Shown piece by piece: positions 3,452 through 20,355 of a DNA stretch of 64,000 bases. The number at the start of each line of letters is the position of its first letter. Positions within the stretch are counted from its first letter, which is position 1. This DNA comes from Oscillospiraceae bacterium (GTDB lineage Bacteria; Bacillota; Clostridia; Oscillospirales; JAAYXM01), in contig JAFQME010000024.1 of assembly GCA_017421025.1 (NCBI GenBank), forward strand, positions 2,820 through 66,819. The letters are read 5' to 3'. Made by a program: the position numbers and the translations under genes. The notes beneath the pieces are model-generated. The model was not told where the DNA came from and ran no database searches. It was given only the letters and a program-made list of their open reading frames with translations.

Positions 3452-6349
3452 CTAGATGTTATAGAAAATTCTGTACAATGTAGCAATTGTCTGTTCTTTT
3501 GTTATGTTTCCTTTTGGATTAAATCCAGTTCCATCACCTTGCATTATACCTTTTTCATATACAAAGTTTACACTATCATTTGCCCAAGATGATATTCCAC
3601 CAGGAAGATTGTAATTGAAAGCAGTTGTATCATATCCCAATAGCTTTACTGTTCGAGTAAGCATAACTGCAGCTTCTTCACGTGTAATCTCCGCAAGAGG
3701 ATCAAATTTTCCTTCACCCTTACCTTTAATTAGTCCCAATCTGTATGCATAGTCAACATCAATAAACAATGCATCATCAAAAGGTACAGATATCATAGGC
3801 AGTTCATTTTCTTCTAACAAACTATGCACGCTTTTACCCGATTTTCTTTCAATGAAATTTACAAGGAATGTTGCAAACTCTGCTCTGGTTATGCTTTCTG
3901 TGTAATTACATTCAAGATATTCAGGCAAAAATCCTAAAACTTTTGCACCTTTTATACTATCTGTTGCCCAAGGACTGTAATTCGTGGAACGTACAACCAT
4001 CATATATTTACTGTAATCCTCAAAACCACTATACCAATCACTTGTTTTAACACACCGGTCAATAGAATTTAAGCTTGAAAGAACGCTATCACAGTCGGCA
4101 TCTTTTCCGCCTAAAATTTTTGCTATTAACACAGGATTTAAAGCAACAGCAGAAACAAATTTTTCAAATGCGTTCTTTTTCACTTGTCCTTTTTTTACAC
4201 CTTCTACATAACTGATACAGATATTGTCACCATACAAAATAAGGTCTTTATATGCATCTGCCATAACAATTAATATTTTGGCATTTTCAACAGTAGGATG
4301 ATTATTTAAGTCTAATTCTAATGCATCTAGCGAAGTAACCATTGCCTTATCTATTTCATTGATTGCAATAATACATAGTGCATCATAAGATAATTCTGAA
4401 GCATTATATACATTATCTGCAACAAATTTACCTGTTTTATAAGCATATTTATATAGAAGTCCATAAGGATTTTTAGAAATAAAATTCTTGTCGATTTCAT
4501 CCTTTAAAGTATCAACCAAAACTTCAACACCAAATTTACCAAACTCCATAGCAAAAATTATTTCAGGATTTGTTTTTGCATTTTTTATTTTGGTTATAAA
4601 AGAATTAGCTGCAGATGTAAGTTCAGCATTTGAAGAACAAAGTGCAATTTGTTCAAGAGCTTCTATCTGTAAATCTCCAACAGCATTCAGCATATATGCA
4701 TATCTAATAGCATTTACCAATTCTCTGTATGTTTTAAATGCTTTTTGACCTTTTTCAAAATGATAGTTAAGAAAATCTAAAGCTTCTGGAAATCCTGAAA
4801 ACTGCGTAAATTTGATAAGTCTTTCTTCGTCTATTGCTCCGTCTAAAAATTCTGCTGTCATATAATAATTGTCACCAAGGGTATCGTCATACATTTCGCT
4901 GCAAGCATTAACAAACGTTGTTACAGCATTTTCTTCTATTGTATCGGCTATATTGGTTAACAATTCTTTGTTTTCAAAGTTTTCAATCAGTATCTCAAAT
5001 AAAATAATTTCATAAAAATTAGTTGATTTTCCATGAAGTATATCTTCTGTAAGTGAATAATATCCTTTCATTAAAGATGCATCACCAATTGCATTTGCCA
5101 TAATTGTGTGCGGGACATCACTATCTTTATAGAAATTATATTCATGATTATTTGTCAATTTTTTTGCTTTTAATACTGGTGTATCAATATCGGCATTCGC
5201 AAATTGTGTTAGATTCATGATATTTACAGGAATTTGACTAGATGTTGTTGTGCCATCTCCAATAGGGACCCACATTGAAGCCCGTTCAGTATCAGTATTC
5301 CAACACCATAAGCTATTATCATTTTTTATAGCCATGTTAATACCTGCACAAGATATATTTTTTACGTCATCCATAATTTTTGTTGGTTGGAAAAATTCGA
5401 GTTCTGTTTTGCTATGATAAGTTCCCTGCCATGTGCTATGATAAATTCCATGCCATGTCCATACACTTCCATCGGTTTTAAGCACCGCATTTGAAGAAAC
5501 CTGGGCAACATTTTCCATTACCTTGATAGGCACGATAGAAGAACTCGGGTCTTCTACTCCGAAGTCTCCATAACTATTTGATCCCCATGCCCATAATGTT
5601 CCATCTGTTTTTATTGCATATGTTGTATCATTTTTTAAATATATATCCGCAACATCATTCAAAATTTTTATTGGAATGCTTTTATCTTTTGTTGTACCAT
5701 CTCCTAATTGTCCGTCTTCATTATTACCCCACATCCAAAGGCTGTTGTCATTTTTTATTGCAGCACTATGTTGAGTCCCGAGAGAAACTTTTTTCACATC
5801 ATTCATAATTTTTGTAGGAATATTAACTGTCTTGTTCTCACCTGTCCCTAATTGCCCTTTCTGATTATTACCCCACATCCAAAGAGTATTATCCGATTTT
5901 ATTGCTGCACTATATGATCCACCGCATGCTGTGTAAATCACATCATCCATTATTTTTACTGGAATATGCGTACTCTTAGTTGTACCATCCCCTAAATAAC
6001 CAAAAACATTATAGCCCCATTTCCAAAGGGAATAATCTGACTTTATTAATGAACCGTGTGCACCGTTGTTAGGAAGTGAAACAAAAATAACATCATCCAT
6101 TATTTTCAATGGGGTTGTTTGTTTGCCTAAGGGTGCATTCGATGGATATAACCTGCTAAAATCTCCCCATATCCACAAACTACCATCTGTTTTTAGTGCC
6201 GCACTTTGATAGCAACCTGCAGATATCATAGGAGATATTACAACCTCTTCAGATGTGTTGTTTGCAAAAGCATACCCAGCACTTGTTGAGCATATAGTAA
6301 AAACTATATGCAGCACCAACACCAAACTCAAAAATCTTTTCCTCATCAC
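3452..6349 (-). CDS. Surface protein with N-terminal RCC1-type beta-propeller repeats, a long helical middle region and three C-terminal SLH domains
   Basis: 965 aa. Signal peptide MMRKRFLSLVLVLHIVFTICSTSAGYAFA. About 7 repeats of the type LWMWGNN..GQLGDGTTK....P.KIM.DV. C-terminal SLH-like units: ITRAEFATFLVNFI, ITREEAAVMLTRTV, ITKEQTIATLYRIF. Strikingly AT-rich compared with the flanks. Confidence 0.85.
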   Translation of the reverse strand: MMRKRFLSLVLVLHIVFTICSTSAGYAFANNTSEEVVISPMISAGCYQSAALKTDGSLWIWGDFSRLYPSNAPLGKQTTPLKIMDDVIFVSLPNNGAHGSLIKSDYSLWKWGYNVFGYLGDGTTKSTHIPVKIMDDVIYTACGGSYSAAIKSDNTLWMWGNNQKGQLGTGENKTVNIPTKIMNDVKKVSLGTQHSAAIKNDNSLWMWGNNEDGQLGDGTTKDKSIPIKILNDVADIYLKNDTTYAIKTDGTLWAWGSNSYGDFGVEDPSSSIVPIKVMENVAQVSSNAVLKTDGSVWTWHGIYHSTWQGTYHSKTELEFFQPTKIMDDVKNISCAGINMAIKNDNSLWCWNTDTERASMWVPIGDGTTTSSQIPVNIMNLTQFANADIDTPVLKAKKLTNNHEYNFYKDSDVPHTIMANAIGDASLMKGYYSLTEDILHGKSTNFYEIILFEILIENFENKELLTNIADTIEENAVTTFVNACSEMYDDTLGDNYYMTAEFLDGAIDEERLIKFTQFSGFPEALDFLNYHFEKGQKAFKTYRELVNAIRYAYMLNAVGDLQIEALEQIALCSSNAELTSAANSFITKIKNAKTNPEIIFAMEFGKFGVEVLVDTLKDEIDKNFISKNPYGLLYKYAYKTGKFVADNVYNASELSYDALCIIAINEIDKAMVTSLDALELDLNNHPTVENAKILIVMADAYKDLILYGDNICISYVEGVKKGQVKKNAFEKFVSAVALNPVLIAKILGGKDADCDSVLSSLNSIDRCVKTSDWYSGFEDYSKYMMVVRSTNYSPWATDSIKGAKVLGFLPEYLECNYTESITRAEFATFLVNFIERKSGKSVHSLLEENELPMISVPFDDALFIDVDYAYRLGLIKGKGEGKFDPLAEITREEAAVMLTRTVKLLGYDTTAFNYNLPGGISSWANDSVNFVYEKGIMQGDGTGFNPKGNITKEQTIATLYRIFYNI

Positions 6350-12125: not shown

Positions 12126-12833
12126 ATGTATCGATATGAAACCCATTTGCACACCTATCCTGTGAGCAGATGTGCAAAGGCGGGGGTACGTGAGACACTG
12201 GATTTTTACAAGAGTCTTGATTATGATGGGGTGTTTCTCACCAATCATTTTTTGGATGGAAACATCAATCTTGACCGAGACCTGTCGTTTGAGAAACAGA
12301 TGGAGTTTTATCTGTCGGATTATGAGGAGGCGCTCGCTTACGGAAAAGAAATTGGGCTGCGTGTGTTTTTTGCACCTGAGATTTCCTATGCGGGCACTGA
12401 TTTTTTAATTTACGGCTTTCTGCCGCAGTGGTACCTGGACCATCCCGAGATTTTGGAGATGGACAAACGAAGTGAACTGGAATTTCTCATGGCAGAGGGG
12501 GCAACTGTGATTCATGCGCACCCGTACCGTGAGGCGGACTACATTGACCATATTCGGTTATATCCGAGAAGTGTGCACGGTGTGGAGGTGTTAAACACCT
12601 GCCGCACGGATTTGGAAAACCAAATGGCGGAGGCGTATGCAACGGCGTACGGACTCCTCAGATTTGCAGGAAGCGACAACCATTTCGGCAGCGGTATGAA
12701 ACGTCTTGCCGGGATGTGCTCGGAAACTCCGATTCGAGATGAGCGGGATTTTGCAGAGCGTGTCCTGAAAAGCCAAATGCAACTTTTCACATTGGAAAGG
12801 GACGAGGAGACTTGGACATTCAATTTGTATTAA
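12126..12833 (+). CDS. PHP-domain (histidinol-phosphatase-like) metal-dependent phosphoesterase
   Basis: 235 aa. N-terminal YETHLHTYPVSRCA (HxH motif), later VIHAHPYRE and GSDNH. Confidence 0.75.
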   Translation: MYRYETHLHTYPVSRCAKAGVRETLDFYKSLDYDGVFLTNHFLDGNINLDRDLSFEKQMEFYLSDYEEALAYGKEIGLRVFFAPEISYAGTDFLIYGFLPQWYLDHPEILEMDKRSELEFLMAEGATVIHAHPYREADYIDHIRLYPRSVHGVEVLNTCRTDLENQMAEAYATAYGLLRFAGSDNHFGSGMKRLAGMCSETPIRDERDFAERVLKSQMQLFTLERDEETWTFNLY

Positions 12834-13384
12834 GCAGCGCTCTCTTGGGATTTGCACTTGCGATGGACGCATTTTCGGTCTCCCTTGCAAACGGGCTCAA
12901 TGAGCCGTGCATGAAACTTCCGAAACTACTCGGGATTGCCGGGGTGTTTGCGGCGTTTCAGGCGCTGATGCCCATGATTGGATGGGTGTGTGTTCACACC
13001 ATGGTGGAGAAATTCACCGTGTTTGCCGGGTGGATTCCGTATATCGCACTTGTGCTTCTCTGCTACATCGGCGGGAATATGATTTACGAGGGCTTGCGAG
13101 GGGACTGTGACGAATGTCTCAAAGTCGGGCTTTTGGCGCTGTTGGGGCAGGGGATTGCAACCTCGATTGACGCACTTTCGGTGGGCTTTACCATCTCGGA
13201 GTACGGTGTGTTGGACGCAGTTTTAGCCTCCCTCATCATTGCGGCGGTCACGTTTGTGGTGTGTACTGCCGGGGGGTTCATCGGAAAGAGTGCGGGGACC
13301 AAGCTTGCAGGAAAGGCGAATATCCTCGGCGGCGTGATTCTGGTCGCCATCGGAATCAAGATTTTTTTAGACGGAGTGTTATAA
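12812..13384 (+). CDS. mntP: Manganese efflux pump MntP
   Basis: 190 aa, 6 hydrophobic helices. Duplicated DAFSV/DALSVG motifs: FALAMDAFSVSLANG and ATSIDALSVGFT. TTG start overlaps the PHP gene by 22 nt. Confidence 0.8.
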   Translation: MDIQFVLSSALLGFALAMDAFSVSLANGLNEPCMKLPKLLGIAGVFAAFQALMPMIGWVCVHTMVEKFTVFAGWIPYIALVLLCYIGGNMIYEGLRGDCDECLKVGLLALLGQGIATSIDALSVGFTISEYGVLDAVLASLIIAAVTFVVCTAGGFIGKSAGTKLAGKANILGGVILVAIGIKIFLDGVL

Positions 13385-13402: not shown

Positions 13403-14581
13403 ATGGGTGAAGGTGATTTGACAATACTCGTCACAATTGCGGGCATTGCTTTGATTGTGTATGGGATGAAGAAAAAGAATCAGAAGATTGTGGTGTTTTC
13501 TGCCATTGGTTTGGCGCTTGCTTACGTTGCGTATTTCTGCGCAATCAATGAGATTCCGTGGGCGCTTCGGAAAATCCGGGGTGAGGATTTCATCGGACAG
13601 TGGATGGCGTTATTCGGGATTTTGATGCTCGGCTCACTTGCTGTGACATTGATTCTCTCGCTTGTGGAACTGTTCGTGTGTCTTGGTGCGGCGAAGAGCA
13701 AGGCGTATAGCAGTGAGGATTTGATGCTTCTGCGCAAGCTTGACCGCTATCAAATGGTTGGGTATTACCTGCTGAAAGGCAGACTGGACGGAATCTTGCA
13801 ATGCAAATATTCAAAAAAGAAGGGTGGACGGGTTGAACTCAACCCGAATTGGACCGAGCAAGTAAGACGCACGTATTGCGAGACGAATCCGCAGATCAAG
13901 CAGATTGTGGCATATATTGCAGGCGCATCCAAGGAAAACAACGAGGAAAGAATTTATGCCACCAAAAACACGAAAACTTTATCTGCCATTGTGAAGAAGG
14001 TAGATATCACATCCGGACGTGGCAGGAAATTGATCGTCAAATTCATTCGGAAAGCGAAACCGATTTCTTTGGCGGTGTTGTTTGGACTTGCAGTCGGCGG
14101 TTATTTTGTTGGGTATACGAAACTTCTGATGGGTCTGTATCGTGGTAAAGCGGTGGGAGGCTTGGTGGGGACATTGTTGGTGCTGGCACCAATGTTTACG
14201 ACCATGTGCTATGCCATCAACCGTGGGATTTACGATGCAATGGGTTTTTTGATCAAGCGAAGTCTTGACCGTCAATCAAAACGATTCAAGGGCGTTGAGA
14301 AACCCTTCGAATGTGAGTTCGATGCGAACTTGACCGACGAAGAAAAGGCCGGTATTTTGCGAGCGTATGTGATGAGTGGCGATTTGAAGCGCTACACCAA
14401 TACGGAAGAAGACAAACGGTTTTTGACCTATGTGCTCGGCTCGGTGGTTGTGGCACAAGCGGCAGCGGCAAGGGCGGTAGCAGCGGCAAAGGCGGCGGCA
14501 AGAGCGTCGTCTTCCGGCGGCGGATGCAGTGGCTGCAGCAGTTGCAGCAGTTGTGGTGGCTGCGGCGGCTGTGGTGATTAA
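13403..14581 (+). CDS. Polytopic membrane protein, paralog A, with C-terminal Cys-x-x ladder (...GGGCSGCSSCSSCGGCGGCGD)
   Basis: 392 aa. SD AGGGGGA. About 5 hydrophobic helices. Blocks shared with B and C: INEIPWALRKIRGEDF, DLMLLRKLDRY..GYYLLKGRLDGIL, GGYFVGYTKLLMGLYRGK, LRAYVM. An Ala-rich stretch precedes the tail. I recognise no known family. Confidence 0.9.
   Translation: MGEGDLTILVTIAGIALIVYGMKKKNQKIVVFSAIGLALAYVAYFCAINEIPWALRKIRGEDFIGQWMALFGILMLGSLAVTLILSLVELFVCLGAAKSKAYSSEDLMLLRKLDRYQMVGYYLLKGRLDGILQCKYSKKKGGRVELNPNWTEQVRRTYCETNPQIKQIVAYIAGASKENNEERIYATKNTKTLSAIVKKVDITSGRGRKLIVKFIRKAKPISLAVLFGLAVGGYFVGYTKLLMGLYRGKAVGGLVGTLLVLAPMFTTMCYAINRGIYDAMGFLIKRSLDRQSKRFKGVEKPFECEFDANLTDEEKAGILRAYVMSGDLKRYTNTEEDKRFLTYVLGSVVVAQAAAARAVAAAKAAARASSSGGGCSGCSSCSSCGGCGGCGD
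14507..14578 (+). repeat. Coding triplet-periodic Cys tail of paralog A (6 Cys at 3-residue spacing, ends CGD)
   Basis: tcg tct tcc ggc ggc gga tgc agt ggc tgc agc agt tgc agc agt tgt ggt ggc tgc ggc ggc tgt ggt gat. Confidence 0.95.
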
Positions 14582-14607
14582 GGAATAGAAATTGGGGGGG
14601 ATTTGAG

Positions 14608-16146
14608 ATGAAAGTATTAAAAGGAATTGCGTGTACGGTGCTCTCGATTGTGTTTCTCGCACTGGTTGGATTGCTGATCCTCTTTCCGTTTGCGCTGATG
14701 GATAACGGTGAGAGTTGGAAAGAAGCATTGATTGGTGCTGTGGTGATTGCCGGGGTATGCGCCGGCATTGGCGTGCTTTTGTGGAAGTTGTCCCACACTG
14801 CAATTCAGGTGTGCGGACTCATTCTTGCGCTTTGTGTTGTTATTGGATTGCCTATCGGTTTGTTTGAAAGCGAATCGGTGGGGGGCACAACACTCTTTGT
14901 GACGATCATTGGAATTGTATTGATCGTGCTTGGAGTGACAAACCAAAAGAAGCTGCGTGTGGTGTTTTCCGGCATCGGATTAGCACTCTCTTATGTTGCC
15001 GCATACTGCGCGGTCAATGAAATCCCGTGGGCGATTCGAAAAATCCGGGGTGAGGAGTTTCTCGGACAATGGACCCTGTTGTTTGTGATTTTGATGCTGG
15101 TATCGCTTGCAATCACCGCTTTACTTGCACTCAATACGACATACAAACATCGTGATGAGGCAAAGGACAAGCTGTATTTTGACGGGGATTTGATGATCTT
15201 ACGCAAGTTTGACCGTTATCGCAAAATTGGATATTACATCTTAAAAGCAAGACTGCACGGGATTTTGCAGTACGAGTATCAAGAGGACAAGGGTGGCGTT
15301 GTCAGATTTAACCCGGATTTCACCGAGGAAGAAAAGCGTGCGTATTGCGAGGTAAATCCGCAGGTCAAGCGGATTTTGGCATACGTTGTGGAAAAGCACT
15401 TTGAGGAAGAGCTGGAAAGTGAACTTAGCTCGTTGGTCAAGGAACAAGGTTTGCTTGATGGATGGAATCAATACAAAGCAAACCTCGAGGAACGAGTTTA
15501 TACCACCCGAAACACGAAGTGGGTGCGTGTGGCAGACATTGTATCGAACGTGGAAGCAAAGCCGGAAATTCAGAGCGACGGCGGAACATTTGCAAGCAAA
15601 ATCATTGAGCGAATGAGAACGGTTTTCAAGAGTGTATTTTGGAGTCTTGTGCTCGGCGGCTATTTTGTTGGGTATACCAAGCTTTTGATGGGCCTGCATC
15701 GTGGCAAAGAAGTGGGCAATCTGACCGCACTGCTGCTTTTGGGGGCACCGATCATCGCAGCGATTGCATATTTTATCAATCGCTGGATTTGTGAGAAGCT
15801 GATGGATTGGTTTGTGGCAAGCATCATCAAACACAAAACAAAACACTTTAAGGACATGGAAACACTCTTTAAGACCCACAACTTTGATTCCATTCCGACC
15901 ACCGAAGAGATGACCCGTGTTTTGAGAGCATATGTGCTCTATGACTACGATGCGAAGTATTACACTGCGGCGGAAGAGGACGGGTTGTTTGCAACCGATG
16001 TGTTCAAGTCGGTAGTGGCAGCACAGGTGGCTGCAGCTGCGGCTGCGGCGGCAAAACGGTCGTCGTCTTCCGATGGCGGCTGCAGCGGTTGTGGCGGCTG
16101 TGGCGGCTGCGGTGGCTGCGGCGGTTGTGGCGGTTGTGGAGATTAA
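14608..16146 (+). CDS. Polytopic membrane protein, paralog B, with C-terminal (CGG)n-CGD tail
   Basis: 512 aa. SD GGGGGGA. Has an extra ~100-aa N-terminal hydrophobic extension, then the same conserved blocks: INEIPWAIRKIRGEEF, DLMILRKFDRY, GGYFVGYTKLLMGLHRGKEVGNL, LRAYVL. Ends VAAQVAAAAAAAAKRSSSSDGGCSGCGGCGGCGGCGGCGGCGD. Confidence 0.9.
   Translation: MKVLKGIACTVLSIVFLALVGLLILFPFALMDNGESWKEALIGAVVIAGVCAGIGVLLWKLSHTAIQVCGLILALCVVIGLPIGLFESESVGGTTLFVTIIGIVLIVLGVTNQKKLRVVFSGIGLALSYVAAYCAVNEIPWAIRKIRGEEFLGQWTLLFVILMLVSLAITALLALNTTYKHRDEAKDKLYFDGDLMILRKFDRYRKIGYYILKARLHGILQYEYQEDKGGVVRFNPDFTEEEKRAYCEVNPQVKRILAYVVEKHFEEELESELSSLVKEQGLLDGWNQYKANLEERVYTTRNTKWVRVADIVSNVEAKPEIQSDGGTFASKIIERMRTVFKSVFWSLVLGGYFVGYTKLLMGLHRGKEVGNLTALLLLGAPIIAAIAYFINRWICEKLMDWFVASIIKHKTKHFKDMETLFKTHNFDSIPTTEEMTRVLRAYVLYDYDAKYYTAAEEDGLFATDVFKSVVAAQVAAAAAAAAKRSSSSDGGCSGCGGCGGCGGCGGCGGCGD
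16060..16143 (+). repeat. Coding Cys-Gly-Gly tail of paralog B (7 Cys)
   Basis: 16081 onward reads tgc agc ggt tgt ggc ggc tgt ggc ggc tgc ggt ggc tgc ggc ggt tgt ggc ggt tgt gga gat taa. Synonymous codons are mixed. Confidence 0.95.
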
Positions 16147-16171
16147 AACCAGGATGGTATCGGAGGATAAA

Positions 16172-17602
16172 ATGGACGGGGAAAAGAGAACGATTTGGAC
16201 GAGGATGAAAGAATTCTGTTGCAATTCGAATGTTCAAGTGGTCGTGGGCGGTATCGTATTTTTTGCTTTGATTTTCTTTTTCTGCGCAAACGAGGATATT
16301 GTGCAAGATGAGACCTTTTCGCTGACGATAGCGGCTACGATAGTCGGTGCAGGCTTGATAGTTGCCGGGGTTATTGGCAAACGAAACAGACTTGCGACCT
16401 TTTCTGCAATTTCGTTGGGATTGTATTATGTGATTTGGATTGGCGCAATCAATGAGGTCCCGTCTGTGATCCGAAAGATCCAAGGAGAGGAGTTCTTGGC
16501 GCTTTGGCCTTTCTTGTTTGCTTGCATTGTGGGGCTTTCACTTCTTGTGACAATGCGGGTATGCAAACGTTATTTTCATCGGAAGAGCGCCGAGGCGAAT
16601 GAGAAGATTTATTCGGACGGGGATTTGATGATCCTGCTTGGGTTTGATCGATACGATCGGGTCGGCTATTACCTGTTCAAGGCAAGACTGCATGGGATTT
16701 TGACGTATGAGAAAACAGCGGATGGCATCACTGTCACACTGAATCCTGCACTCAGTGAATCGGAAAAACGGGCGTACTGTGCAGAGAATCCGAATGTAAT
16801 GCAGATTTTGCGTTACATCGTGGAACGGGACTTCGCCGTGAAATGCGAGGAAGAGTACAAAGCGATTTTGGATGAGTTCAAGAGGAATCCCAAAACGCAA
16901 CGCCAGATTGCGGATCGATTCTTGGAGAGGATGGAGGAGCGTCTCTATACCACAAAAGAGGTGCAACCGCTTCCGACCGATACGGTTGTGAGGAGCGTGA
17001 ATCTGAATCTGCGGATTCAGAGTGATGGCGGGAAATTTATTGAAACAATCGTCAAGAATGTAAAGCGCATTGTAAAGAATATCTGGATCAGCTTCTTGAT
17101 CGGTGGATATTCGATTGGGCTTTCAAAACTTTTGATGGGCATACACCGTGGCAAAGAAGTGGGCAATTTGGTGTTTTGCATGTTCTGGCTCGGAGCAATC
17201 GCCATAGGTGTTTGCTATTGGGGAAATAAAAAGATTGTGGAAAATGCGTACCAACAGTTTTTGTGCAGCCTCAAGGAGTACAAATCAAAGAATTTTCATC
17301 AGATTCAAGAAATGCTGGATCATTTTGATTTCGACTCAATTCCGACTGAGGATGAGGCGAAACGGGTTTTGAGGGCGTACGTTTTGCGTGATCGCAGCAA
17401 GTGGACACCGCTCAAACCGGAAGATCCGGTTCGTTTTTCGAGTGATATTTTCCGTGCGGTGGTTGTGGCACATGCAATCGCACAGATGCCATCCAAAACA
17501 ACTTCCAACGACGCCGGCGGCTGCGGCTGTGGAGGCTGTGGTGGCTGTGGCGGTTGCGGCGGATGCGGTGGCTGCGGCGGTTGCGGCGGTTGTGGAGATT
17601 AA
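16172..17602 (+). CDS. Polytopic membrane protein, paralog C, with C-terminal (CGG)n-CGD tail
   Basis: 476 aa from ATG 16172 (SD GGAGG 6 nt upstream). The track start 16073 is an out-of-frame read through the tail repeat of B. Blocks: INEVPSVIRKIQGEEF, DLMILLGFDRY, GGYSIGLSKLLMGIHRGKEVGNL, LRAYVL. Ends ...NDAGGCGCGGCGGCGGCGGCGGCGGCGGCGD. Confidence 0.88.
   Translation: MDGEKRTIWTRMKEFCCNSNVQVVVGGIVFFALIFFFCANEDIVQDETFSLTIAATIVGAGLIVAGVIGKRNRLATFSAISLGLYYVIWIGAINEVPSVIRKIQGEEFLALWPFLFACIVGLSLLVTMRVCKRYFHRKSAEANEKIYSDGDLMILLGFDRYDRVGYYLFKARLHGILTYEKTADGITVTLNPALSESEKRAYCAENPNVMQILRYIVERDFAVKCEEEYKAILDEFKRNPKTQRQIADRFLERMEERLYTTKEVQPLPTDTVVRSVNLNLRIQSDGGKFIETIVKNVKRIVKNIWISFLIGGYSIGLSKLLMGIHRGKEVGNLVFCMFWLGAIAIGVCYWGNKKIVENAYQQFLCSLKEYKSKNFHQIQEMLDHFDFDSIPTEDEAKRVLRAYVLRDRSKWTPLKPEDPVRFSSDIFRAVVVAHAIAQMPSKTTSNDAGGCGCGGCGGCGGCGGCGGCGGCGGCGD
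17516..17599 (+). repeat. Coding Cys-Gly-Gly tail of paralog C (9 Cys)
   Basis: ggc ggc tgc ggc tgt gga ggc tgt ggt ggc tgt ggc ggt tgc ggc gga tgc ggt ggc tgc ggc ggt tgc ggc ggt tgt gga gat. Confidence 0.95.
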
Positions 17603-17605
17603 GCG

Positions 17606-18637
17606 ATGAGTTGTCGAAATAAAAACAGATTGCTGCTGCAATTTCATCTCACGGGAAGATGCAACCTGCGCTGCAAGCATTGTTACCGTACCGAGGGGGA
17701 CACCGAGCCCCTGAAGTTTGAGGATATTGTTGCGGTGGTGGAGCAGTATCAAGAACTGCGAAGAACATACAATGCGGACAAGGGCATTCGACGTCGGGGA
17801 CATATCAACATCACGGGCGGGGAGCCGTTTATCCGCAAAGATATCAAAGAGATTTTACGCTACTTGGGAGAGAATCGTACCGATTTTTCGTATGGGGTAC
17901 TCTCCAACGGCTCGTTTTTGGATGACGAGATGATTGCGATTTTGAAAGAGACCGAAGTGTCTTTTGTTCAGCTCAGCATTGACGGAGACCAAAAGACACA
18001 CGATGCTTTGCGTGCGCCGGGAGATTACAAGCGGGTGTTTGAGGTGGCAAAACGGCTGGAGAAGAACAAAATCCGGACGTATATCAGTTTTACCGCAAAC
18101 AAGGAAAACTTCCGATTTTTGCCCGGAGTTGCGAGAGCGTGCAGGAGAAATCGGATCACCAAGTTGTGGTCGGACCGTTTGGTGCCGATCGGGAATGGAC
18201 AGGAGATTGCTTCCCTTGCCATTTCAAAAAACGAGCTGTTAGACTATGTCAGGACCATGAAACTTGCTCAGGGGAATTTTTTGACCAAACTCTTTTATCC
18301 CAAAACGCAGGTGACCATGAACCGTGCGTTGCAGTTTTTGCAGAGTGACGGATTGGTATACAGCTGCAGTGCGGGGGACAGTCTCATTACGGTGGATGAA
18401 TTCGGACAGGTCATGCCCTGCCGCAGAATGCCGATTGTTTGCGGGAATGTGTTTGATTCCACCTTGAGTGAGATTTATTACAAGCACGAGGTGTTTCAGG
18501 CGCTGCGGAAACAAAAGATTCCGCAGGAATGTCGCTCCTGTGCGTATCAATCCCTTTGCAAAGGCGGGGCGAAATGTCAAAGCCATGCGGTATACGGGGA
18601 CTACACGTGCGCTGATCCTGCGTGCCCGCTCATATAA
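17606..18637 (+). CDS. Radical SAM enzyme with C-terminal SPASM-type auxiliary Fe-S domain
   Basis: 343 aa. The ATG is 3 nt after the stop of paralog C. CNLRCKHC (CxxxCxxC) at residues 19-26, GGEP motif (ITGGEPFI), and a C-terminal Cys cluster CSAGD..GQVMPC...CGNV...CRSCAYQSLCKGGAKC. No N-terminal extension is available for an RRE/PqqD-like domain. Confidence 0.9.
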   Translation: MSCRNKNRLLLQFHLTGRCNLRCKHCYRTEGDTEPLKFEDIVAVVEQYQELRRTYNADKGIRRRGHINITGGEPFIRKDIKEILRYLGENRTDFSYGVLSNGSFLDDEMIAILKETEVSFVQLSIDGDQKTHDALRAPGDYKRVFEVAKRLEKNKIRTYISFTANKENFRFLPGVARACRRNRITKLWSDRLVPIGNGQEIASLAISKNELLDYVRTMKLAQGNFLTKLFYPKTQVTMNRALQFLQSDGLVYSCSAGDSLITVDEFGQVMPCRRMPIVCGNVFDSTLSEIYYKHEVFQALRKQKIPQECRSCAYQSLCKGGAKCQSHAVYGDYTCADPACPLI

Positions 18638-18678
18638 AAAGAGCATCTCGAAAGACGCCTTTCGAGATGCTCTTTTTA
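18636..18678. terminator. Bidirectional rho-independent terminator
   Basis: aaaaagagcatctcgaaag-acgc-ctttcgagatgctcttttt, between convergent genes ending at 18637 (+) and 18694 (-). Confidence 0.85.
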
Positions 18679-18693
18679 TATGAGAGAGGGGGA

Positions 18694-20250
18694 TTAGTTT
18701 TCTTTGTAACATTCGAAGAGTTCATCGACACGCTCGCAATCGGCCTTTTTGTTTTTGGTAAATGCGCTTACCAAGGGCACGATGATAAGCGAGATTGCCA
18801 TTGCAGCAACACCCATTTCCGGGGATTTTGCCGCTGCAGCGGAGAAGCCGGAATTCAGGGAGATCACGAGGGTTGCGCCACCGACGGTGAGCAGACCCGA
18901 GAGGATGCCGGCACATGCTCCGATCTTGGTGATTTTCTTCGAGAACAGACCCCAAATGTACGGGCCGATGAAGCAGCCGGACACAACGCCCCAGGAGAAC
19001 GACATCAGGCTAACGATGATCGGGATGTTCTGAGTTGCGAAAATGAACGAGCAAGCAACGAAGACCAGGCAGAGGATGCGGGTGAGCAACATCTGGGTTT
19101 CGGGCTTGGTTTCACGCTTGCGCAGAGCGGGAATGAGGTCAACTGCGACTGCGGATGCGGAGGTAAGGACGACTGCTTCCAGGGTGGACATGGATGCAGA
19201 GAGCAGCAGGATCATGATGACTGCAAGCAGGATGATGCCTGCAGTGCCGCCGCCGAGGACTTCCATCAAGAGAGAGGGGATGACCGAGTCAACGCCGCCA
19301 GCCGGAAGCTGACCGCCGAGGATGAGGCGGGAAGTGGAGCCGATCAGGTATGCGCCGCAGCCGATAATGATGCAGAAAAGGGTGGAAATCACGGTGCCAC
19401 GCTTGATGGCTGCGGTGTCTTTGATGGCATAGAATTTACCGATCATCTGCGGGAGACCCCAAGTACCGAAGCTGGTGAGCATGATGTTCACGCAAAGGAA
19501 CTTGAATGCACTGCCGCCAAAGAGGTTGGTGAGCTGTGCGCCGGTGATGGGATTCGGGTCATTCGGGAGGGACTGGAAGTTTCTCAGGTTTTCGATGAAT
19601 CCGCCAAGCCCACCTACCGCATCATGGCTTAAGACTGCGACGATCAAGCAAACCACGCCGACAATCATGATGATCCCTTGGATCAGGTCGGTGTATGCGG
19701 TTGCGATGTAGCCGCCTGCGACCAGGTAGATTGCGGTGAGTGCTGCGATGATGAGCATCCAAACCCAGGTTTCAACGCCCGGGAACACGGCAGAAAACAG
19801 CGAGCCGAGTCCTTTGTAGACCGCAGCGGAGTAGGGAACGAGAAATACGAAGATGATAATGGCTGCCAGAATTTTCATGCCCTTGGAGTTGTAGCGCTTG
19901 CCAAAGTAGTCGGGCATAGTTCTTGCTTCCAGCTTCTTGGTCATCTTTCGGGTACGGTTTGCAAAGAGGAGCCAGGAGAGCAAACAGCCGAGGACTGCGT
20001 TTCCGATGCCGATCCAAATTGCGCCGATACCGATGTTCCATCCGTGCTGACCTGCATAGCCGACGAATACGACTGCAGAGAAATAGGTGGTGCCGTATGC
20101 GAATGCGGTGACCCAGGCGCCGATGTTTCGTCCGCCAATCAGAAACCCATCCAGGGTTTTGGATTTTCCGTAGCTGATACAGCCGATGAGTGCCATTGCA
20201 AGCGCATAAACAGCGAGAGCAATGATTGTGTAGAGTTGTGGATTTGTCAT
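18694..20250 (-). CDS. Sodium:solute symporter (SSS) family transporter
   Basis: 518 aa from ATG 20250 (SD AGGAGGA). Contains LDGFLIGGRNIGAWVTAFAYGTTYFSAVVFVGYAG and about 13 TM helices. Substrate not assignable. Confidence 0.85.
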   Translation of the reverse strand: MTNPQLYTIIALAVYALAMALIGCISYGKSKTLDGFLIGGRNIGAWVTAFAYGTTYFSAVVFVGYAGQHGWNIGIGAIWIGIGNAVLGCLLSWLLFANRTRKMTKKLEARTMPDYFGKRYNSKGMKILAAIIIFVFLVPYSAAVYKGLGSLFSAVFPGVETWVWMLIIAALTAIYLVAGGYIATAYTDLIQGIIMIVGVVCLIVAVLSHDAVGGLGGFIENLRNFQSLPNDPNPITGAQLTNLFGGSAFKFLCVNIMLTSFGTWGLPQMIGKFYAIKDTAAIKRGTVISTLFCIIIGCGAYLIGSTSRLILGGQLPAGGVDSVIPSLLMEVLGGGTAGIILLAVIMILLLSASMSTLEAVVLTSASAVAVDLIPALRKRETKPETQMLLTRILCLVFVACSFIFATQNIPIIVSLMSFSWGVVSGCFIGPYIWGLFSKKITKIGACAGILSGLLTVGGATLVISLNSGFSAAAAKSPEMGVAAMAISLIIVPLVSAFTKNKKADCERVDELFECYKEN

Positions 20251-20355
20251 GTTGAGTTCCTCCTGCCTCCCCGCAAAAGTGGGGCTTGATTTCATCTGCA
20301 TCTGATTATATAATAAGGCTTAGGATTGGTCAAACAGATAGATTAGATGTTTGCG

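Follow-up and report, generated by a model that had tools for sequence, protein, structure and literature searches.

What does a radical S-adenosylmethionine (SAM) enzyme act upon when its gene directly follows those of three membrane proteins that end in regularly spaced Cys residues? This question is raised by positions 13403-18637 of a 64,000-nucleotide (nt) stretch of contig JAFQME010000024.1 (assembly GCA_017421025.1, Oscillospiraceae bacterium). Within this 64-kb stretch, referred to below as the window, four co-directional plus-strand genes encode the paralogous membrane proteins A, B and C and a radical SAM/SPASM enzyme. The association between enzyme and tails is real and non-random. 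Based upon gene linkage and the family to which the enzyme belongs, A-C are probably membrane-anchored substrates, with the downstream Cys-directed protein as their dedicated maturase.

Gene A (13403-14581, 392 amino acids, aa) was delineated using its open reading frame (ORF), a family alignment, an AlphaFold2 (AF2) model and hydropathy. Genes B (14608-16146, 512 aa) and C (16172-17602, 476 aa) were delineated from ORF, family alignment and hydropathy, and the enzyme gene (17606-18637, 343 aa) from its ORF, Pfam and NCBIfam matches and an alignment of 71 relatives. Intergenic gaps measure 26 nt (A-B), 25 nt (B-C) and 3 nt (C-enzyme), and the Shine-Dalgarno sequence of the enzyme gene sits within the last codons of C. 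The ATG of C at 16172 has GGAGG 6 nt upstream and gives the 476-aa product. An alternative start at 16073 would lengthen the ORF of C, but it was discarded as an artefact, because the added stretch (16073-16171, plus strand) begins inside the tail of B, whose Cys-Gly-Gly codons are there read in another frame, as Ala/Val, to give MAAAAVVAAVAAAV. Long spurious ORFs also arise antisense to each of the three tails (e.g., 14276-14803 and 15241-16224, minus strand). Gene sizes, orientation and gaps reproduce a preliminary description of this locus, in which A, B and C had been recognized as paralogs with five or more hydrophobic helices each. Pairwise identities are 52% (A-B) and 41% (B-C), hydropathy gives 5, 8 and 6 membrane helices in A, B and C, respectively, and the sequence blocks listed in that description are conserved in the alignment of the whole family. 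A protein identical to A (P0123; L and P numbers denote loci and proteins throughout) is present together with an identical enzyme in an Oscillospiraceae metagenome-assembled genome (MAG).

The tails read GGGCSGCSSCSSCGGCGGCGD in A (14516-14578, 6 Cys; residues 371-392 are predicted to be disordered, with a predicted local distance difference test score, pLDDT, < 50), DGGCSGCGGCGGCGGCGGCGGCGD in B (16072-16143, 7 Cys) and AGGCGCGGCGGCGGCGGCGGCGGCGGCGD in C (17513-17599, 9 Cys), all on the plus strand and all as first quoted, (Cys-Gly-Gly)n-Cys-Gly-Asp. Gly or Ser stands before every Cys, all three proteins terminate in Cys-Gly-Asp, and among the ORFs of the window only A-C carry tails of this type. 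Codon usage in the tails is mixed (TGC/TGT for Cys; GGC/GGT/GGA and AGC/AGT for Gly/Ser), and the 9-nt periods detected by Tandem Repeats Finder match at only 72-80%, which argues that the periodicity is kept at the protein level. A simple DNA-repeat origin of the tails, through recent slippage or phase variation, was ruled out by the mixed codons.

The enzyme contains CNLRCKHC at residues 19-26, corresponding to a CX3CX2C motif (C19/C23/C26). It belongs to the radical SAM superfamily (PF04055, 73.2 bits; cutoff 29.5) and has a SPASM domain (PF13186, 33.8 bits; cutoff 21.5), as had been read from its C-terminal Cys cluster. The sole Cys residues invariant in 71/71 relatives are C19, C23, C26, C254, C272, C309, C312, C318, C324 and C340, the last seven of which make up the SPASM set. 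Their spacing is CX17C ... CX2CX5CX5C ... X15C, where the first and fourth spacers exceed those of the canonical 7-Cys motif (CX9-15GX4C ... CX2CX5CX3C ... C, two auxiliary clusters; PF13186/TIGR04085). The presence of seven rather than eight SPASM Cys is the pattern for two auxiliary clusters. In CteB, seven Cys arranged in this way can leave a single iron available to a thiolate of the substrate, and the open auxiliary-cluster site binds a substrate Cys. By analogy, we infer that an auxiliary site may also be open in this enzyme and available to a substrate thiolate.

Comparison with NCBIfam placed the enzyme outside every named radical SAM family. It had been considered at the outset that the protein might score as a characterized family with a different substrate, but the best match to the whole protein, TIGR04053, reached 137.7 bits against a cutoff of 395. 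Other matches were rSAM_ACGX (125 bits; cutoff 400), AhbD (116 bits; cutoff 500) and, ranked fifth, SbtM (114 bits; cutoff 350). No named NCBIfam radical SAM equivalog, including NirJ, PapB, anSME, MftC and PqqE, was reached by this enzyme or by six relatives from other phyla, for which the best families were rSAM_ACGX (141-164 bits), SbtM (129-150 bits), TIGR04053 and GeoRSP, all far under cutoff. On these scores the enzyme clade has no curated NCBIfam model or name. Its nearest families there are the ACGX-repeat system, the thio(seleno)oxazole maturase SbtM, GeoRSP and PapB. By profile, the solved structures nearest to the enzyme are CteB, SkfB, SuiB, PqqE and anSME, all of which modify peptides or proteins, and by sequence CteB (E 6.5e-17) and SkfB (E 4.5e-16) are closest.

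Linkage of enzyme and tail was then assessed across genomes. Alignment of 22 enzyme relatives followed by a GTDB scan with one genome per species yielded 80 loci in 80 different records. The linkage count was restricted to 76 loci with a complete enzyme gene (35-71% identity to the window enzyme), and a tailed ORF was sought within 2.5 kb. A Cys/Gly/Ser-tailed ORF was present within this distance in 69 of the 76 loci, which come from different species, whereas such tails occurred in 5 of 585 other ORFs (< 1%). From their positions, at least four of these five background ORFs are expected to be extra paralogs within the tandem arrays of L012 and L019. The suggestion that orthologs would sit beside Cys-tailed proteins was therefore borne out. 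In most loci the tailed ORF ends 1-20 nt upstream of the enzyme start. Gene order varies, with the tailed gene downstream of the enzyme in L026 and L040 and divergent in L047, besides the usual upstream position. Hosts comprise Clostridia, Bacilli, Bacteroidota, syntrophic Deltaproteobacteria-type lineages such as Syntrophorhabdaceae and Smithellaceae, Methanobacteriota and Woesearchaeota.

Enzyme and partner type co-vary across three tiers of enzyme identity. The first tier (57-71%) consists of Oscillospiraceae, Acutalibacteraceae and Lachnospiraceae MAGs, in which the partners are of the A-C type (390-580 aa, ending (CGG/CSS)n-CGD) and occur in one to five tandem copies. In the second tier (40-47%), found in Clostridium cavendishii, C. 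ljungdahlii, Bacteroidia, Syntrophorhabdaceae, Smithellaceae, a Methanobacteriota archaeon and a Woesearchaeote, the partners are about 300 aa long, and five of the six scanned pass the TIGR04222 cutoff of 43 (75-99 bits); the C. ljungdahlii partner (L032) falls below it. In the third tier (35-38%; Bacilli, Erysipelotrichaceae, Muribaculaceae and Lachnospiraceae), the enzyme gene closes a LemA-DUF2207 operon whose DUF2207 protein ends in CSSCGGGCSSCGGGCSSCGGGGSW. The number of tail Cys ranges from 2 to 11, and their spacing (3, 4 or 5) differs between lineages. Several candidate substrates can share one enzyme, three in the window, three tandem tailed paralogs in L019 (5896-9996) and five in L012 (3136-9996), which resembles clusters of peptides made by the ribosome and modified after translation (RiPPs) with multiple precursors. 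Tails in L012 and L019 vary from CSS-rich to Gly-rich (e.g., GGGCGGGGGGGCGGCGGCGGGCGGCGD).

Several loci call for separate mention. Four of them end at contig edges (L015, L021, L030 and L071), and in L052 the DUF2207 gene is fragmented. In four apparent exceptions from Clostridia MAGs (L010, 7146-11041; L016, 6292-11041; L023; L033), the second gene upstream encodes another kind of tailed protein, of only 119-140 aa, ending in GCGSCGCSS followed by 10-20 Asn + Gly. This variant cluster also encodes a second SPASM enzyme (582-586 aa, DynA/anSME-like) and a K+-channel-like protein, followed by the enzyme studied here. In L088 (27-3188), which belongs with this variant, the K+-channel-like gene separates the enzyme from a tailed protein of the A-C type. 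The families common across loci are the tailed proteins and this radical SAM enzyme, with LemA added in the distant loci only.

The converse count, starting from the membrane proteins, was made blind to gene context by searching the tail-less cores of A, B and C against 1.84 billion representative proteins with HMMER. Word-indexed searches (10 proteins with B; three with a tail-less family profile) had scored only the 8,000 candidates sharing the most words and were superseded by this exhaustive search; the low yield with B was attributed to its low-complexity words. The census returned 53 relatives of A-C, a small subfamily, of which about 21 are fragments. A tail is present on 28 of the approximately 34 C-terminally complete representatives, and 21 of those 28 end exactly in CGD, so that the homologs do generally carry the tail, as the reading in the preliminary description required. 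Six complete relatives are tail-less. Two of these (P0132 and P0167) look frameshifted at the tail, and in P0153 an A8 run is followed by the full tail, in a different frame, and then by the enzyme. This A8 frameshift, which parts the P0153 core from an intact tail (...SSGDSGCSGCGGCGGCGGCGGCGGCGD) at about position 5240 of L085, recurs in L086 (the assemblies are from different samples) and could reflect misassembly, a pseudogene or phase variation. Downstream of the genuinely tail-less P0157, P0161 and P0144 lies a histidine phosphatase or RCC1-type gene in place of any radical SAM gene. Conversely, the enzyme is present beside both P0147 and P0156, tailed proteins picked irrespective of context. 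Tail and enzyme go together in both directions. In P0157 and P0161 (L081, 78-2428; L083, 2146-4327), a gene for a 242-aa histidine phosphatase (PF00300) occupies the place where the radical SAM gene otherwise sits, which suggests that the same membrane core may have a second, different partnership.

The identity of the membrane proteins was approached through profile comparison. Pfam gave no match to A, B or C, including none to PF09972 or PF20990, and their TIGR04222 scores (A 15.1 bits, E 0.014; C 13.0 bits, E 0.06; B none) lie under the cutoff of 43. To this extent the proteins fall into no named family, and none had been recognized for them at first. They are nevertheless not without relatives. 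A profile of 22 A-C-type proteins with tails and N-terminal extensions removed was aligned by hhalign to one of the TIGR04222-type neighbours with 98.7% probability (E 2.3e-16, 215 columns). In this alignment I-R-x-I-x-G-E-D-F of A-C superposes on I-x-G-P-x-F-L, and the hairpin G-x-x-K-L-x-M-G-x-x-x-G-K-x-V-x-x-L is common to both. The five TIGR04222-type neighbours that pass the cutoff also match PF20990 (DUF2207_C) weakly, while DUF2207 proper (PF09972 + PF20990) was found only in the partners of the most distant enzyme relatives and not in A-C. By this profile evidence, A-C are divergent members of the TIGR04222/DUF2207_C superfamily rather than an orphan family, and all three partner types (A-C, TIGR04222 and DUF2207) have one common membrane core. 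The tail had likewise not been recognized as that of any named family, but Gly/Ser/Cys tails have already been noted in this superfamily and linked to MNIO enzymes (PMC12452194).

A crude hydropathy scan, the family alignment and the AF2 model of A (pLDDT 73) together gave the domain order of the A-C family, namely variable N-terminal helices, a short conserved motif, a helix, a middle domain, a tight hairpin, a helical region of about 100 aa and a disordered tail. In A, two helices at the N-terminus precede the INEIPWALRKIRGEDF motif, which is followed by a single helix, the alpha/beta middle domain, the hairpin of helices, a C-region that is likewise helical, and the Cys tail. The middle domain is alpha/beta, 120-190 aa long and Lys/Arg-rich across the family. 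No sequence relative of A-C was found in the PDB, and Foldseek returned nothing significant for either the whole AF2 model of A (best E 0.39) or a model of the middle domain (best E 0.32). The latter model (P0124; approximately residues 100-200 of A, window 13700-14000; pLDDT 88, predicted template modelling score 0.81) folds as helix-helix-beta hairpin followed by helices. Its weak, non-significant matches are mostly to winged-helix proteins (PadR, TFIIE, RTP and Pex) and were not relied on. If this likeness is real, the substrate might carry its own module resembling a RiPP recognition element (RRE).

Membrane topology was assigned by positive-inside charge and helix parity, which were concordant. 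The N-terminus of A is acidic with two helices before the motif, consistent with an outside location, and the N-termini of B (basic, five helices) and C (basic, three helices) would lie inside. A CxxC...CxxCG zinc-ribbon forms the N-terminus of many proteins of the A-C type (PF13240 in P0125; tailed proteins of L001, L003, L008, L011-L013, L018, L020, L022 and L024-L026), although A, B and C are without one. Homologs with this N-terminal zinc-ribbon, a cytoplasmic module that was used as a topology marker, have one or five helices before the motif, that is, an odd number. Given the charge bias and helix parity in the three paralogs and the zinc-ribbon homologs, the middle domain and tail of A-C are predicted to be cytoplasmic, with the tail hanging from the last membrane helix. 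For DUF2207, a Protter analysis likewise placed the Gly/Ser-rich C-terminus inside the cell (PMC10457818).

In the proposed mechanism, the target of the enzyme would be the disordered (Cys-Gly/Ser-Gly/Ser)n tail at the C-terminus, which would be modified within the cytoplasm. The seven SPASM Cys would leave one auxiliary [4Fe-4S] site free for the substrate thiolate, and the 5'-deoxyadenosyl radical would take a hydrogen at, or adjacent to, each Cys. If it is indeed the tail that the enzyme modifies, the first chemistry to consider, albeit tentatively, is oxidation of the SbtM type, which would turn each Gly/Ser-Cys unit into a 5-thiooxazole. It is favored by the Gly or Ser before each Cys, by the consistent placing of SbtM among the top matches and by the parallel MNIO link to the same product. 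Thioether cross-links over a short range, as in sactipeptides or ranthipeptides, to which CteB and SkfB as closest structures and the action of PapB on periodic Cys motifs point, are a slightly less favored candidate, and some other chemistry is less likely again. The product would be a membrane-tethered sulfur-rich module, perhaps metal-binding or redox-active, a role suggested by two things only, the analogy with bufferins and the stress phenotype of a DUF2207 mutant.

The nearest known parallel is the pairing of MNIO enzymes with TIGR04222 proteins. A 2025 study (PMC12452194) reported that TIGR04222 proteins with Cys-interspersed Ser/Gly tails make up about 40% of the Cys proteins that lack a signal peptide and are encoded before MNIO genes, and proposed the TIGR04222 proteins as MNIO substrates; a third of TIGR04222-bearing genomes were without MNIO, and a radical SAM partner was not mentioned. 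Bufferin-type MNIO enzymes produce copper-chelating 5-thiooxazoles. Both systems have a homologous membrane core, the G..KL.MG...GK.V hairpin and a Gly/Ser tail with Cys, both link it to a Cys-modifying peptide maturase (a putative one here), and in both the proposed substrate is a whole protein. They differ in that MNIO is an O2-dependent non-haem iron enzyme with hosts mainly in Actinomycetota, whereas the unrelated radical SAM/SPASM enzyme is O2-sensitive and is found in strict anaerobes and archaea. In addition, no DUF692/MNIO gene and no PME partner gene lies beside the operon, A-C score under the TIGR04222 cutoff, and the MNIO-TIGR04222 pairing is itself a proposal. By analogy, the system described here is probably the anaerobic counterpart of that pairing. 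Full-text literature searches, whose coverage is not complete for all literature, found no description of a radical SAM link to these tails.

Among radical SAM systems, SbtM/SbtMa (TIGR04082; Lewis et al. 2021) is also a radical SAM/SPASM enzyme. SbtM has three clusters and converts -Gly-Cys/Sec- to a thio(seleno)oxazole through hydrogen abstraction at the Cys C-beta (PMC9204691). All six scanned relatives have it among their three best NCBIfam matches, but scores remain at 114-150 bits against a cutoff of 350, its extra N-terminal region of about 200 aa is absent here, and its substrate is a small soluble selenopeptide rather than a membrane-protein tail. The ACGX system (TIGR04340) aligns end to end with the enzyme as best or second-best NCBIfam match, and its predicted substrate is, by the NCBIfam name, a periodic Cys repeat of small residues, as here; it reaches 125-164 bits where the cutoff is 400, its substrates are small peptides, and the family is a hypothetical equivalog. 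PapB/freyrasin, CteB/SCIFF and SkfB make thioethers from periodic or clustered Cys, but they carry an N-terminal RRE and act on leader-containing peptides that are later both cleaved and exported, whereas RRE, leader, protease and exporter are all lacking here. Precedents for a SPASM enzyme that modifies Cys of a full-length protein without an RRE are anSME (Cys to formylglycine) and QhpD (Cys-Asp/Glu thioethers). Their likeness to the enzyme is low (anSME profile E about 1e-9; NCBIfam 61-66 bits), and their substrates are soluble enzymes modified at a single motif or few sites rather than low-complexity tails. Lastly, LemA-DUF2207 operons (PF09972/PF20990) hold the most distant enzyme relatives at their end. 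DUF2207_C is related to the A-C core, and the Gly/Ser-rich C-terminus of DUF2207 is predicted to be intracellular, but A-C are without the extracellular DUF2207 N-domain and a LemA neighbour. The DUF2207 protein of Streptococcus mutans (SMU.243) has sensitivity to acid and oxidative stress as its sole reported phenotype, was described as Gly/Ser-rich only, and was reported with no mention of a radical SAM partner (PMC10457818).

Several observations weigh against the tails being the substrate of the enzyme. Scores to the tetrapyrrole-modifying AhbD and NirJ (~115 bits) are near those of peptide maturases, so that family similarity cannot fix the substrate class. No RRE is present in the enzyme, as no RRE family was matched in the NCBIfam and Pfam scans, and since the cluster motif begins at residue 19 there is no room for an N-terminal one. 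The operon accordingly departs from a classical RiPP cluster, in that the candidates are membrane proteins of 390-510 aa, an RRE is absent, and a conserved protease or transporter is missing from the 80 loci. Neither is any protease, exporter or metal-related gene conserved across these loci, and without a conserved metal gene nearby a metal-binding role is left without independent genomic support. In three loci (L007, L038 and L046) the enzyme has no tailed neighbour in the fetched flanks, which are long enough to contain one. CxxCxxC spacing is able to bind iron-sulfur (Fe-S) clusters or metals unmodified. Finally, actinobacterial TIGR04222 tails are predicted to be periplasmic (PMC12452194), contrary to the cytoplasmic topology assigned here.

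In one alternative, the tails are unmodified Fe-S or metal-binding partners of the enzyme, acting as a membrane-tethered conduit for electrons or as a donor of clusters or sulfur, or merely being loaded by it. Cluster motifs of the ferredoxin type have CxxCxxC as their core spacing, and the enzyme requires three [4Fe-4S] clusters. The co-occurrence of tail and enzyme is also explained in this way, and the lack of a leader peptide, protease or exporter fits. The tails themselves, however, are Gly/Ser low-complexity segments, predicted to be disordered and variable in Cys number (2-11) and spacing, unlike a cluster-binding fold, and homologous tails in aerobes are linked to MNIO modifiers of peptide Cys. 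Moreover, the nearest relatives of the enzyme modify peptides or proteins, and radical SAM enzymes normally receive electrons from soluble flavodoxin or ferredoxin. We regard unmodified partners as an improbable explanation, if the best of those competing with substrate tails.

An enzyme directed at a tetrapyrrole, another small molecule or another protein, with the membrane protein as docking site, transporter-like partner or regulator and the tail incidental, appears slightly more improbable again. The presence of AhbD, NirJ and TIGR04053 among the top NCBIfam matches, the short length of the enzyme (343 aa) and lack of an RRE, and the three loci without a tailed neighbour all speak for it. 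It leaves unexplained why three partner architectures keep the Cys tail when the enzyme adjoins and why tail-less homologs are without the enzyme. No other biosynthetic genes are conserved around the pair, and a 7-Cys SPASM domain whose auxiliary site is open is a typical feature of peptide maturases that bind thiolates, CteB among them. The notion that there is no functional link, and that ordinary low-complexity ends hitch-hike in an operon of related gut or rumen Clostridia, draws on the fact that the closest loci derive mostly from rumen or gut MAGs that are related to one another, but such chance linkage is strongly disfavoured by its retention with enzymes of as little as 35% identity, in different phyla and also among archaea, with three partner architectures, three gene orders and a background tail frequency < 1%.

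The operon is flanked by MntP, PHP, SSF symporter and LysR genes. The MntP-type manganese efflux gene (PF02659, 112 bits; 12812-13384, plus strand) ends 18 nt before A and may be co-transcribed with it. It was considered as part of the system and dropped, as it is not a conserved neighbour in the other loci. A manganese riboswitch was sought upstream using Rfam, and nothing reached the gathering threshold. Downstream, a perfect 26-bp inverted repeat with a 4-nt loop and A-run and T-run flanks (18629-18684, no strand assigned) overlaps the enzyme stop codon and faces a convergent sodium:solute symporter gene (18694-20301, minus strand). This hairpin, on which Rfam at E-value thresholds gave spurious plant-microRNA matches, is a terminator for both directions, by which the operon is closed off from the symporter gene. 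Elsewhere in the window, a 965-aa protein (3452-6349, minus strand) with RCC1-like repeats and an SLH-like C-terminus, as judged by eye, is encoded in a segment of 32.5% G+C compared with ~50% for the rest, and may represent horizontally acquired cell-surface DNA.

Cys-modifying radical SAM/SPASM enzymes are well known to act on small peptides and a few soluble proteins. The present system differs in its unnamed enzyme clade, in a candidate substrate that is the low-complexity tail of a polytopic membrane protein, and in a pairing that extends from rumen Clostridia to archaea. If MNIO in aerobes and this radical SAM enzyme in anaerobes both act on such tails, two unrelated enzyme families have converged on one type of substrate, and this convergence would be a strong indirect pointer to tail modification and to an aerobic/anaerobic division of labour. 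A bolder version, which we consider doubtful at present, is that the unnamed SPASM clade of anaerobic bacteria and archaea turns the cytoplasmic Cys ladders of TIGR04222/DUF2207 proteins into arrays of 5-thiooxazole or other Cys-derived ligands. This would be an O2-independent convergent equivalent of MNIO/bufferin chemistry and would give these proteins of unknown function a first molecular function, as membrane-tethered metal-buffering or redox modules. A homologous pair is present in the cultured and genetically tractable Clostridium ljungdahlii (L032, 9055-11029; contig NZ_LITT01000035.1, about 287.2-289.2 kb). If confirmed, tail maturation would add a new enzyme-substrate pair to radical SAM chemistry and provide a handle on the function of the widespread DUF2207/TIGR04222 proteins, for which a stress-tolerance phenotype is all that is on record.

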